NCBI GenBank assembly: GCA_964414895.1 | Contig: CAYPXO010000006.1 | Location: 1 to 53,560, forward strand | DNA: 53,560 bases | DNA from: an uncultured Pseudomonadales bacterium | GTDB taxonomy: Bacteria > Patescibacteriota > Microgenomatia > UBA1400 > CAYNMC01 | Direction of reading: 5' to 3' | Shown here: positions 49,290 to 51,044 of the stretch, in pieces | Layout of the letters: every line of letters begins with the position of its first letter | Position numbering within the stretch: the stretch's first letter is position 1 | Program-made: the position numbers and the translations under genes | Notes under the pieces: generated by a model | The model's database searches: none | What the model was told of the DNA's origin: nothing | Seen by the model: the letters and a program-made list of their open reading frames with translations, nothing else

Positions 49290-49320
49290 AAAAAAGTAAT
49301 TTGTAAATAGTAAATTGTAA

Positions 49321-49701
49321 TTAGGACTTTTTAGCTCTTAGTGCTGAATTAATTAAACCGTTTAACTTCGGTCTTAATTCTTTATAACATTTAAGATAAT
49401 CATTTTTATCTTTTTCCTTTAAAAATCCTCTTTCATCCAAAATTTCAAACCAGTAGCGTGATTCCAACAAAGAGCCTCTCGAATTATAATAGAATTTTAC
49501 TTTATCCAAATAATGAAATCTACCATAACCTTCGGCAATATTGGCTCCGACTGAATCTGTTGACTCTACAAACTGGTTACCCATTATTTTTTTGTCTTGC
49601 CAATCTAAATCCTTATAAATCTCCCAAGCAATCCTGCTCAACTCTCGAGCCAGTTTATAAACCTCTAATTTATCCAGTGAAAGATAATTTTTAGTCTTCA
49701 T
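49321..49701 (-). CDS. Four-helix-bundle protein (23S rRNA IVP / bAvd-like)
   Basis: LEVYK, Q...S..SVGANIAEGYGR, SRGSLLE. Confidence 0.92.
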   Translation of the reverse strand: MKTKNYLSLDKLEVYKLARELSRIAWEIYKDLDWQDKKIMGNQFVESTDSVGANIAEGYGRFHYLDKVKFYYNSRGSLLESRYWFEILDERGFLKEKDKNDYLKCYKELRPKLNGLINSALRAKKS

Positions 49702-49757
49702 TTCCTTAATTACTAATTACTCAATTACTAATTACTATCTTTTTCATCAATTACCAA

Positions 49758-51044
49758 TTACAAATTACAAATTACTATCCTATCTAAAAAATCTTTAGCA
49801 ACCAAGTCTTTATCAGTCGTTGTTATAATTGTTTGTTGCTTTCCAACAATCTTCAATACCAATCTTCGATGTTCCTCATCCAATTCGGAAAAAATATCAT
49901 CCAAAAGCAAAACTGGCCTGCCCGCCGAAGGATCTGGCATGGAACACGGCTGAATAAGCCGAGTGGAATGGCCAAACCCGAAGGCGGGTTGCTCGCCGCT
50001 CTTTTGCTTCACAAACTCTAATTCTGCCAGCTTTAAGGCCAAAACCGCCATCCGCTGCTCACCTCGACTTCCGAAAAGAGATAAATCTTTGCCATTTTCT
50101 AATTTTGAATTTTGAATTGCAATTTTTAATTTTTCATTTCTAATTTTGAATTTTATATCATCACGCTGTGGTCCGACCAAAGTTGCCCCAAGCGCCAGTT
50201 CTGCCTGAGCATATTTCTCAAGCCTTGCTGGTGAGATCACACTCTTGTCATATTCAATTGTTAAATTTTTTCTTAAAAAATTGAAAATTGAAAATTGAAA
50301 ATTGAAAATTTCTACTAACTCTTCTCTTTTTCGGCTAATAATTTCTCCATTTTTAACAAGCAAACGGTTCCAAAACTCAAGTTGTGTGCGCTGCGCCTCG
50401 CCTTCCCGAATCTTATCCAAAAGCCGATTTCTTTGTCTTAAACCTTTTTTATAAGCTAGGTTACATCTTCGATAATCATTATCAACCAATTCCAAAACCG
50501 AATCCAAATAATCCCGCCGAATGCTAGGGCTACCCAAAATAATCTCAATATCTTCCGGCCGAAACAAAACTACTTTTAAATTCCCCACAAAATCCCGCCA
50601 CCGCCTTCCCACCCCATTGACTTTAAAAAGCTTTTTTGCTGTTTTTTTACCCTGAACTTGGCCAGTTGTGAGAATAACTCCTAATTTAGAAACGCGGGGA
50701 GCCCCGTACAATTTAGAAGTCTTTGTTTGCGAGCGCCCTGAAGCACCATCCTCCCTATGAGTCTTTTCGCGCAGAGAATCAAAGACGCGCAAATTGTCAC
50801 GGGGCGACCTCAGCGTTTCTGAAGCACTCCCCTCAACCCTAGCCAATTCTTCCCCATAGGCAATCATCTCCTCAGTTCTTTCCGCCCGAAAGCTTTTCCC
50901 CCGGGAAAGTACATAAATTGCCTCCAAAATATTGGTCTTCCCTCTTGCATTCGGCCCAACAATCAAAGTAGTCTTGTTGGAAAAATCAAAAGACTTCTTC
51001 TTATAGGATCGGAAATTCTGTAATGAAAGTTCCTGAAGAAACAT
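49758..51044 (-). CDS. recF: DNA replication/repair protein RecF
   Basis: NFRSY, GPNARGKTN, GPQRDD, SRGEQR, LLLDDIFSELD. Confidence 0.95.
   Translation of the reverse strand: MFLQELSLQNFRSYKKKSFDFSNKTTLIVGPNARGKTNILEAIYVLSRGKSFRAERTEEMIAYGEELARVEGSASETLRSPRDNLRVFDSLREKTHREDGASGRSQTKTSKLYGAPRVSKLGVILTTGQVQGKKTAKKLFKVNGVGRRWRDFVGNLKVVLFRPEDIEIILGSPSIRRDYLDSVLELVDNDYRRCNLAYKKGLRQRNRLLDKIREGEAQRTQLEFWNRLLVKNGEIISRKREELVEIFNFQFSIFNFLRKNLTIEYDKSVISPARLEKYAQAELALGATLVGPQRDDIKFKIRNEKLKIAIQNSKLENGKDLSLFGSRGEQRMAVLALKLAELEFVKQKSGEQPAFGFGHSTRLIQPCSMPDPSAGRPVLLLDDIFSELDEEHRRLVLKIVGKQQTIITTTDKDLVAKDFLDRIVICNL

Follow-up and report, generated by a model that had tools for sequence, protein, structure and literature searches.

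An Avd-like four-helix-bundle gene between inverted heptamer arrays at the recF–eno junction of an ultra-small bacterium: a candidate operon-borne counterpart of the 23S rRNA intervening sequence

Introduction

Genes of the PF05635/TIGR02436 type were first found inside ribosomal-RNA intervening sequences (IVSs). They form a very large family spread over many phyla, the function of which is not known, and members are found within rRNA insertions, in the neighborhood of DGRs, and in CRISPR–cas loci. Short repeats also accompany small genes in other settings. For example, integron cassettes combine a promoter-less small ORF with attC, an imperfect palindromic site whose sequence varies while its architecture is kept, and REP sequences, found with RAYT genes, make up one conserved family per genome. 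Arrays of 7-nt units, direct and inverted, occur as the heptanucleotide tandem repeats of cyanobacteria (STRR) and as the heptad iterons of the omega repressor of pSM19035; we know of no link between either of these and four-helix-bundle genes.

The closest known system to the locus described here is the ORF-bearing 23S rRNA IVS, as found in Coxiella burnetii and Leptospira, where the ORF encodes S23p. Sections of PMC4990558 describe the Coxiella IVS as an S23p ORF in the loop of a 28-bp stem that RNase III cuts, and the same sections cover excision at the stem and the old proposal that the IVS is a selfish or mobile element. ORFs designated 23S_rRNA_IVP are described in rRNA insertions of CPR bacteria in part of PMC11270868, and a passage of PMC3936711 has a family gene wedged inside an operon, between cmr3 and cmr2. 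A passage of PMC10053308 names PF05635 as the commonest Pfam near DGRs. The DGR accessory protein Avd is itself pentameric and nucleic-acid-associated.

Results

The locus lies in a stretch of 53,560 nucleotides (the window) from an uncultured ultra-small bacterium, whose own genome (1.29 Mb, 99% complete) is coded G000. Genomes of relatives carry labels of the form G0xx, cassette loci run from L0xx to L2xx, and C-numbers (C7, C8, C14) denote G000 contigs or copies. All features of the locus are on the minus strand. A gene of 126 aa (49321..49701), placed in the 23S-rRNA-IVS-protein/Avd-like family by PF05635, TIGR02436, and fold, is situated between recF upstream (49758..51044; TIGR00611, 256.6 bits against a cut-off of 172) and eno downstream (48033..49289; TIGR01060, 512 bits). 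That heptamer arrays of opposite orientation flank this gene, as a preliminary description had proposed, is borne out by the sequence, by Tandem Repeats Finder (TRF), and by inverted-repeat search.

The downstream arm (49296..49322; sequence, TRF, and repeat search) holds four heptamers of the GTAAT/GTAAA type on the plus strand, AATTAC-type in gene orientation, with the units gtaattt, gtaaata, gtaaatt, and gtaatt. It starts at the stop codon of the four-helix-bundle gene and ends 6 nt before the start of eno; TRF reports this side as 49291-49324, with period 7 and 4.9 copies. The upstream side had been taken for one array. Repeats are present at 49707-49775 (taattac, taattac, tcaattac, taattac, then tatctttttcat, then caattac, caattac, aaattac, aaattac), but they make up two direct blocks, a 41-nt duplication: TRF gives 49707-49777 with period 7 and 10.3 copies, and 49701-79 also as a 41-nt unit present twice. 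The proximal block (49707..49739; sequence, TRF, and repeat families D1 and D2) reads, in gene orientation, as GATAG plus four GTAATTN units and runs into an RBS-like AAGGA and then the ATG of the gene, and the distal block (49748..49779) is its direct 41-nt duplicate (41-nt period, 2.0 copies, 84% by TRF). Repeat search pairs 49296-49313 with 49751-49768 as inverted arms at 89% complementarity, with a 43-nt pair at 77%, and the flank complementarity of the gene reaches z 5.2-9.9 against shuffles.

The distal block also provides the 3′ end of recF, the last codons of which had earlier been noticed to come from the right-hand array. The last six codons and the stop (49758-49775) are read from this block as ATA GTA ATT TGT AAT TTG TAA, that is, IVICNL followed by a stop, and recF has further in-frame arrays at 50096-50154 and 50277-50310. 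The same unit was said to lie in frame in mutM/fpg (assigned by NF002211), and (GTAATTG)x4 is indeed found there in the stop-free orientation (51862..51889; by TRF 51862-51888, 3.9 copies, 100% matches), translating as IPNYQLPITNY. Only six arrays with at least three GTAAT cores exist in the 1.29 Mb genome; three of them are in the window, and the mutM array is among the six.

The protein belongs to the family by profile match, to both PF05635 (E 4.5e-23, 81.9 bits, cut-off 33.8) and TIGR02436 (E 1.2e-22, 80.2 bits, cut-off 24). Its AlphaFold model (pLDDT 94) predicts helices at 13-30, 34-59, 64-90, and 96-125, a four-helix bundle like those of Xcc0516 (2gsc) and BT_0352 (2rld). Foldseek places 2gsc first (TM 0.84/0.94, rmsd 1.1), 2rld next, and then Avd (4dwl), so that the suggested structural kinship to the DGR accessory protein holds on the predicted model. 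According to the introduction of PMC4990558, the five chains of 2gsc form a homopentameric ring. G000 has eight family copies, mutually 23-49% identical, and here too wedge positions occur in a conserved operon (gatC-x-gatA-x-gatB on C14).

Bracketing by inverted arrays is the rule in this family. When flanks were scored as inverted at a complementarity of z>=3 against shuffles, they were found at 8/8 family copies in G000 versus 109/1202 other, crudely called genes (Mann-Whitney p 2.5e-6), at 58/68 cassettes of G000 and its relatives, at 56/66 of a metagenome subfamily, and at 114/134 in all. Homologues, whose flanks the preliminary description had proposed to examine, therefore do carry arrays. 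Clear inverted arms are absent from 10/68 and 10/66 cassettes in these two sets, some of which have direct arms, and direct flanking blocks reach z>=3 in 18/66 metagenome-subfamily cassettes. Complementarity of the arms across cassettes is only ~78-80%, and the eight cassettes of G000 have eight different repeat units. Since 9% of ordinary G000 genes are also inverted-flanked, the host's own repeat habit contributes to the bracketing; other small G000 genes flanked by arrays are GxxExxY, RAYT-like, and IS200 TnpA genes.

Comparison with relatives supports the view that the gene and its arms behave as one relocatable cassette, because recF–eno sites are empty elsewhere and the closest homologues, with related arms, are at other places. 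None of 29 relatives' recF loci has a PF05635-type ORF at recF. Seven have eno downstream, and of these pairs five have spacers of ~30-170 nt with neither arrays nor gene, while two have unrelated inserts. The proposed search for empty sites thus shows the site to be empty in five of the seven relatives that keep the pair, and the gene is not syntenic there. At 69-73% identity, L166 of G027, L187, L188, L189, and L190 are the closest homologues; they sit upstream of pth, as do L192 (60% identity) and L214 (80% over a partial match), and their arms are of a GTAAT/AAGAAAT type related to those of the window. Homologues at 49-80% identity have 38 upstream neighbor families among 58 loci and 43 downstream among 60, with related arms kept, and they are co-oriented with these neighbors at 51/58 and 53/60 loci versus a 76% baseline. 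Orthologous cassettes also recur at the same site across families of the order, between the M16 peptidase gene and ndk (G027, G004) and between trxA and trxB (G011, G023), as well as upstream of uppS (G000, G001) and upstream of pth (G027 and five contigs).

The preliminary description had called this unit a mobile cassette. What stands is that gene and arms are found, or missing, together and in many contexts; the word "mobile" is justified on an evolutionary time scale alone, and no movement was seen directly. Neither a transposase nor population polymorphism was seen for the cassette, and the sequence has no direct repeat at its outer borders. It does not look like an IS- or MITE-like transposable element either, given that copies diverge to 23-49% identity, the ORF encodes a helical bundle, and no target-site duplication was seen. 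Among sequencing runs, one sample, possibly the source, carries the stretch, and no RNA run does. In that sample, one contig spans 48700-50138 with the cassette, and no contig has a joint skipping it; as contigs cannot reveal rare alleles, this result is neutral on population polymorphism. Three outcomes had been named in advance as arguing against the proposal, and in each case the reverse was found: homologues have arrays, recF–eno synteny is lacking, and array density rises with family copy number across genomes (rho 0.64).

The arms carry polar, stop-bearing motifs. Counting the upstream arm in sense together with the reverse complement of the downstream arm, at least five G[AT][AT]AT cores are present in 48/67 subfamily cassettes versus 3/69 of other subfamilies, and in the opposite polarity in 2/67; this polar core is kept in the subfamily at protein divergences of 50-60% identity. 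Its spacing is predominantly 10-11 nt and secondarily 7-8 nt, and with such variation fits no single binding geometry. Among the 69 other-subfamily cassettes, protein similarity to the window gene and core count show a rho of 0.07, and six cores occur among the top-ranked of them only in L166, the one true subfamily member, and in L152 (41% identical). The arms of another subfamily (C7 of G000, L042, and L045; 58-60% identity) share only TAG. The subfamily-specific core could reflect shared descent or could simply amount to a stop triplet plus AAT.

Across the family, stop polarity shows as a statistical tendency. All three frames are closed by the upstream arm in 66/136 cases in sense versus 34/136 in antisense, with 180 occurrences of TAG versus 64 of CTA. 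A host ORF enters 104/134 cassettes and terminates ahead of the cassette start, at a median distance of 42 nt, and the 7-mer ending in the host stop recurs in the spacer in 42/98 cases versus 5/98 for a control 7-mer.

Discussion

The cassette shares with the 23S rRNA IVS a PF05635 ORF in a loop, a size of ~0.4-0.5 kb, and terminal inverted repeats, the stem around the ORF being known here by prediction only. Unlike the IVS, it is hosted not by a helix of an rRNA gene but by an mRNA operon, between recF and eno. Where the IVS has a near-perfect 28-bp stem, the cassette has arms built of degenerate tandem heptamers, with ~78-89% complementarity; its upstream side is duplicated, and an arm supplies the last codons and the stop of a host gene. 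With DGRs it shares the Avd fold (4dwl, TM 0.72/0.84; DGR RNP entries 8ub7 and 8ube), but identity to 4dwl is 12% in the structural alignment, no template/variable repeat pair is present, and the 99%-complete G000 yields zero matches to PF00078 (RVT_1), so there is no adjacent reverse transcriptase. A possible parallel with integron cassettes is that the site sequence differs per cassette and insertion is oriented with the surrounding genes; the arms here, however, lie on both sides, inverted and built of short tandem units, and cassettes stand singly between housekeeping genes instead of being arrayed. REP/REPIN elements with RAYT likewise have short palindromic repeats that flank a small gene inversely and are dispersed in intergenic regions, and the RAYT-like genes of G000 (a match below the model cut-off, 42.8 vs 80 bits) are themselves flanked by inverted arrays. 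In contrast to REP/REPIN, the unit differs from cassette to cassette here, and the enclosed protein lacks a HUH/Y1 catalytic domain. A search of the main text of a limited set of articles found no published layout of this kind outside rRNA.

Gene-less arrays were earlier interpreted as empty forms or scars of the cassette, and this reading as a whole is not supported. Period-7 arrays are a genuine feature of the genome (259 with a TRF score >=40 versus 0 in a third-order Markov copy), and most lie inside genes (314/518 inside ORFs). A 68-member family profile, searched with hmmsearch --max against six-frame pieces of at least 20 aa, recovered the eight genes (E <= 3.5e-30) and no remnants, the next hit having an E of 0.27. 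Scars were also sought by unit identity, comparing own and foreign cassette arms with the 591 arrays that lie over 1 kb away from any family gene; own units matched no better than foreign ones (Mann-Whitney p 0.5), and the difference in means (13.2 matches for own arms vs 6.9 for foreign) was driven by AT-rich composition. Array pairs share units in ~5% of cases within 0.3-3 kb, in either orientation, versus ~2% between contigs, a weak effect. Genome-wide, arrays contain 44 stop versus 29 (crude) start codons, with no clear asymmetry. Relative G008 has arrays though no family match. The scar reading is left with the copy-number correlation and three or four shared sites: three of eight sites that hold a cassette in relatives are gene-less inverted hairpins in G000 (C8:40850-41134, C18:22862-22952, and C20:24508-24637), and the fourth is the pth site, occupied in other organisms at L166, L187, L188, L190, L192, and L214, where in the window the spacer upstream of pth contains no family gene but a 9-nt array that includes an internal palindrome (TTAGGCAAA/TTTGCCTAA; 39524..39563, minus strand; TRF and site comparison).

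The same sites bear on another possibility, namely that the arms are a property of the host: short-period hairpin arrays, processing- or terminator-like, would sit in spacers, small genes would land or persist in their loops, and gene-less hairpins would be unoccupied targets. The 40 short-loop inverted array pairs of G000, 34 of them intergenic, fit this, as do the hairpins at shared sites (against a background of roughly 47 inverted array pairs over about 1216 gene junctions), the array-flanked GxxExxY, RAYT-like, IS200 TnpA, and ordinary genes, and the stop-bearing arm being 5′ in gene-less hairpins too (18 vs 10, not significant). However, the five empty recF–eno sites are without any arrays, a polar core is common to the arms of a single protein subfamily over at least 38 contexts in many organisms, the eight cassettes of one host have eight different units, and units at shared sites differ between genomes. 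We consider this explanation doubtful.

Somewhat less likely still is that the arms count solely for the RNA stem they form, with RNase III cutting an mRNA "intervening sequence" and so separating the recF, small-gene, and eno transcripts; any complementary sequence would then suffice, and tandem units would make the pairing slippage-tolerant. A fold prediction for 49285-49790 (minus strand) pairs the distal block with the downstream arm in both MFE and centroid structures (-113.2 kcal/mol, z -3.9, 0/100 shuffles as good), the RNase III gene rnc is present in G000, and the rRNA case in the sections of PMC4990558 noted above is an experimental precedent that involves this family in the same arrangement. 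If the stem were indifferent to sequence, units would be expected to differ from locus to locus, as they do, and co-orientation with neighbors also suits it. Yet aligned arms lack the wobble signature of an RNA helix: sense G.U-type mismatches number 267 (135+132) versus 270 (127+143) in antisense, with 480 transversions, as many as transitions. Without strand asymmetry in wobble pairs, the arms do not resemble a selected RNA helix. The conserved polar core and the direct blocks that accompany inverted ones at many loci (18/66) also speak against a stem alone.

A regulator gene that has long been resident and is inherited vertically, flanked on either side by operator-like iterons for autoregulation and patchy in presence through loss and rearrangement, would suit the ancient, divergent copies, the persistence of orthologous cassettes at four sites across families, and the 10-11 nt core spacing of most subfamily members, which would place the cores on one face of B-DNA, but it is very unlikely in view of the 38-43 different neighborhoods of one subfamily, the host ORF ends overwritten by arrays, the wedges in conserved operons (gatC-x-gatA-x-gatB here, and cmr3-x-cmr2 in the passage of PMC3936711), and the family's occurrence inside rRNA genes (the part of PMC11270868 cited above).

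The explanation that we favor, at slightly better than an even chance, is that a gene cassette of the IVS type resides here in an operon and not in rRNA. It would consist of the four-helix-bundle ORF plus convergent arms of 4-5 reiterated short motifs, here GTAATTN with period 7. Judging from the empty site in relatives and the closest homologues with related arms elsewhere, it was probably inserted or relocated into the recF 3′ end, upstream of eno, in this genome's lineage. At this locus, the upstream arm has a stop triplet in every unit and, with a period not divisible by three, closes all three frames, so that recF ends just before the RBS and ATG of the cassette; in the family at large this is a tendency. 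Because the downstream arm is the reverse complement, the arms can pair in the operon transcript and enclose the ORF in a long, imperfect stem, and the predicted fold and the presence of rnc suggest that this would be the kind of substrate from which RNase III excises rRNA-borne members.

For the arms themselves, the lack of wobble asymmetry and the conserved polar core lead to a tentative reading, well short of an even chance, as primarily arrays of a recognition motif, with complementarity following from their convergent orientation. The likeliest reader of such a motif would be the cassette's own putative ring-forming, Avd-like protein (pentameric in solved relatives), acting on DNA or RNA.

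If packaging between inverted arms and gain or loss as a block are regular, the 30-year-old puzzle of the IVS would become a general cassette problem, and regular packaging would offer concrete candidate ligands to test, namely the protein's own arms. It would also be a warning for annotation, since host genes would gain new C-termini from arrays that could themselves be taken for CRISPRs or phase-variation repeats. An improbable extension is that the ring protein reads its own flanking repeats sequence-specifically and that the family also carries out, or is indispensable to, the seeding of short-period arrays of ~4.3-5 units across these genomes, those inside genes included. Were this true, a single protein–repeat system, so far undescribed, would show itself in rRNA IVSs, in operon cassettes, and in the "heptamer habit" of CPR bacteria.

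The cassette between recF and eno

The four-helix-bundle ORF of 126 aa (49321-49701; PF05635, E 4.5e-23; TIGR02436, E 1.2e-22) lies between recF (49758-51044) and eno (48033-49289), with mutM at 51109-52071. All four are on the minus strand, and the last three were named by equivalog models. The genome, G000 (1.29 Mb, 37.8% G+C), is 99% complete, and the window is its contig C6. The sequence and repeat finding bore out the preliminary description, according to which inverted heptamer arrays flank the gene, the right-hand array supplies the last recF codons, and the unit recurs in frame in mutM. 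The mutM copy is (GTAATTG)x3.9, in the orientation without stop triplets. Its layout held for the inverted flanks, but the upstream side is double rather than a single array. The proximal (49707-49739) and distal (49748-49779) upstream blocks each read GATAG + (GTAATTN)4 in gene orientation and are direct repeats of each other, a 41-nt duplication; the distal block encodes the recF C-terminus, six codons and the stop (IVICNL*). The downstream arm (49322-49296), the reverse complement of four GTAATTN units, starts within the stop codon of the ORF and ends 6 nt from the eno start.

Both recF and mutM carry other inserts. A ~30-nt AT-rich element (ttgaattgcaatttttaatttttcattt) is in frame in recF (50096-50154) and mutM (51768-51826), encoding NEKLKIAIQN in both proteins; in the sample, contig depths for it sum to 64-74, compared with 13.8 for the flanks. 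An (AAAATTG)x4.9 array in frame in recF (50277-50310) encodes FNFQFSIFNF and is present in many other contigs from three runs of the study (summed depths ~410, 206, and 31; its flanks have 13.8 in the source run). AAAATTG is also the commonest unit in G000, with 28 arrays. The recF product has 428 aa, compared with ~350-380 aa in relatives, and two more in-frame, G+C-rich insertions lie at ~49920-49985 and ~50691-50816 (residues ~354-375 and ~77-118). The former is palindromic (gcccgccgaagg...cccgaaggcggg), and alignments to nearly all relatives break at both.

Inverted arms across the family

Flanks were compared by gapped local alignment with shuffles, at a threshold of z>=3. All eight PF05635 genes of G000 are flanked by mutually reverse-complementary arrays, with a different unit at each locus. 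All eight reach the threshold, against 109 of the 1202 remaining crude ORF-genes (Mann-Whitney p 2.5e-6). Copies of the family occur in 25 of 40 same-order relatives (1-10 per genome), and when G000 and relatives were pooled, excluding loci that contain N runs or have less than 100 nt of flank, inverted flanks were found in 58 of 68 cassettes. They were also present in 56 of 66 metagenome homologues of the window protein, with direct flanks, additionally or alternatively, in 18. Even in a genome so rich in short-period arrays, the family is conspicuous. Also ranking high in flank complementarity in G000 are a GxxExxY protein gene (TIGR04256, E 3.7e-36; contig C4, 6090-6488), two RAYT-like genes (C16, 9035-9685; C2, 36213-36848), and two identical IS200 TnpA genes (C17, 27687-28115 and 33902-34330). 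One RAYT-like gene was scanned and matched below the cut-off (42.8 vs 80 bits); the second is named by likeness alone.

The arms are polar with respect to stop triplets. In the 42 nt that precede the gene start, all three frames are closed in sense in 66 of 136 non-redundant cassettes and in antisense in 34, and TAG outnumbers CTA upstream (180 to 64), with the reverse downstream (76 to 149). A host ORF runs toward the cassette in 104 of 134 cases, with its stop at a median of 42 nt ahead of the gene start, and the 7-mer ending in that stop is repeated in the spacer in 42 of 98, compared with 5 of 98 for a control 7-mer. The ending of recF inside an array is thus typical. With a stop in every unit and a period not divisible by three, any incoming frame is closed within three units.

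The window subfamily (67 non-redundant cassettes, 49-80% identity) has a recurrent core. We counted G[AT][AT]AT (GAAAT, GATAT, GTAAT, GTTAT) in the sense upstream arm and the reverse complement of the downstream arm. At least five cores were found in 48 of 67 cassettes, and in 2 of 67 in the opposite polarity; other subfamilies reached this count in 3 of 69, all three among the 27 AT-rich ones. The usual distance between cores is 10-11 nt (194 intervals); a smaller group of members, the cassette in the window included, has 7-8 nt (58). Distances divisible by three are rare (9 nt, six intervals; 12 nt, one). Readable neighbors fall into 38 families upstream (58 loci) and 43 downstream (60 loci), and the cassettes are co-oriented with 51 of 58 and 53 of 60 of them, respectively (genome baseline 76%). 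A polar core kept by most of a subfamily in such varied neighborhoods speaks for arms that are cargo or co-evolve with the protein, and against arms that belong to the target. Shared ancestry could produce the same pattern. In another subfamily (the cassette on contig C7 of G000 and relatives' loci L042 and L045), the arms have just TAG in common.

Evidence for gain and loss of the block

recF was found in 39 of 41 genomes, and we compared 29 relatives' loci (recF +/- 1.5 kb). None held a four-helix-bundle ORF by the family profile (E<=1). eno comes next after recF in seven. In five of these (L010, from a same-family relative, L012, L018, L022, and L023), the spacer is ordinary AT-rich sequence of ~30-170 nt without arrays; in the other two (L016 and L028), 0.7-0.8 kb of unrelated sequence separates the genes. 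The nearest homologues, 69-73% identical to the window protein (L166 in the relative G027; L187-L190 on metagenome contigs), occupy the site upstream of pth that follows a phosphoribosyltransferase-like gene. In relatives, gene and arms are thus missing together at recF-eno, and the closest kin of this cassette are located elsewhere, which supports a unit acquired and lost as a whole in the course of evolution. The claim of a mobile cassette stands to this extent.

One G000 operon appears split by two cassettes, each with its own unit (C14, 8659-10925; gatC - cassette - gatA - cassette - gatB, names read from flanking translations alone). In G001, a same-family relative with 6% contamination, a family pseudogene with one internal TGA lies directly upstream of a second recF homologue (C38, 83564-84894).

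Gene-less arrays

Period-7 arrays (TRF) are abundant in G000, with 518 compared with 79 in a Markov-3 copy (259 vs 0 at score >=40), and 331 arrays hold 98 distinct heptamer units. Array length is quantised by number of units, not nt, peaking at 30-31 nt for period 7 and 34-35 nt for period 8 (~4.3 units; e.g., window 19090-19120, 20585-20615, 35457-35486, and 41779-41808). Few exceed ~5.1 units, unlike a slippage tail.

The preliminary description took gene-less inverted arrays for empty forms or scars of the cassette. The anticipated correlation between copy number and period-7 density did appear in 38 relatives, which as kin are not independent (Spearman 0.64, p 1e-5; period 10-11 control, 0.19). 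Samples were mostly ~40 kb (23-43 kb), four family genes in them were left unmasked, and G020 and G040 (<20 kb) were left out. At eight G000 sites, both neighbors of a relative's cassette are adjacent: three hold gene-less inverted hairpins, three have other palindromic elements or no notable feature, and two are tight junctions. The pth site of the window (39521-39576), where there is just an array (40 nt, 9-mer unit) with an internal palindrome, is a fourth gene-less array where other organisms carry a cassette. However, a family profile search found no gene remnants anywhere in G000, resident-cassette units are not over-represented among 591 other arrays, and 314 of the 518 period-7 arrays lie within ORFs. 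Moreover, the relative G008, with no family match, carries 7 arrays in 40 kb, and arrays are few in G023 despite its 10 copies. The scar reading is not supported, and a broader habit of these genomes, with which the cassettes are associated, accounts better for the arrays than derivation from cassettes. The mutM array may be a local exception, lying 2.1 kb from the cassette: G000 has six GTAAT-type arrays, including two cassette arms, and the chance of such proximity is an estimated ~1-2%.

Other elements occupy some of these spacers. A MITE-like element (tgtcattc...gaatgaca) fills two where relatives carry four-helix-bundle cassettes (C8, 40920-41030, where it lies within the loop of an inverted array pair that has no gene; C17, 30225-30400). 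Another palindromic element, G+C-rich and with GGCA/TGCC runs (gcctgcctgccagcaggcag), is found repeatedly between genes (window 52140-52200; C13, 14530-14600), once where a relative has a cassette.

What may read the arms

In the predicted sense-RNA fold of 49285-49790, the distal block pairs with the downstream arm in both MFE and centroid structures (-113.2 kcal/mol; shuffles -91.3 +/- 5.6; z -3.9). This resembles the Coxiella 23S rRNA intervening sequence (IVS), an ORF in a stem closed by inverted ends, although here the stem is predicted only; in PMC4990558, RNase III cleaves the Coxiella 23S rRNA stem, 28 bp long, at its middle. RNase III is encoded in G000. A selected RNA helix was rejected: aligned arms contain as many mismatches that would be G.U in the sense RNA (135+132) as mismatches that would be G.U in antisense alone (127+143), and transversions are as common (242+238). 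There is no sense-strand wobble excess (267 vs 270), and we treat the modeled stem as real, yet probably not the primary constraint. We favor the arms as convergent arrays of a recognised motif.

The AlphaFold model of the protein (42 subfamily sequences; pLDDT 94) has four long helices, and its structural matches are, best first, Xcc0516 (2gsc, TM 0.84/0.94), BT_0352 (2rld), and Avd (4dwl), the accessory protein of diversity-generating retroelements. The window protein shares no more than 34% identity with any of the seven other G000 copies, and identities among all eight range from 23 to 49%. By inference, the encoded ring protein would be the obvious candidate for a locus-specific reader of the arm motif.

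Fold kinship with Avd is already in print (PMC10053308), and ORF-bearing IVSs with terminal inverted repeats were known, and proposed to be selfish or mobile, as early as 1993 (cited in PMC4990558). 23S_rRNA_IVP ORFs in rRNA insertions of CPR are covered in PMC11270868. Apparently new are the tandem-unit arms, their polarity, and the operon cassettes, for which a search of the main texts of the available papers found no report. In PMC3936711, a family gene between cmr3 and cmr2 is noted with the repeats uncommented, and two surveys, PMC3936711 and PMC10910872, count 23S_rRNA_IVP genes as CRISPR-linked. A habit of wedging between genes, together with repeat arms, could yield such CRISPR links without any CRISPR function.
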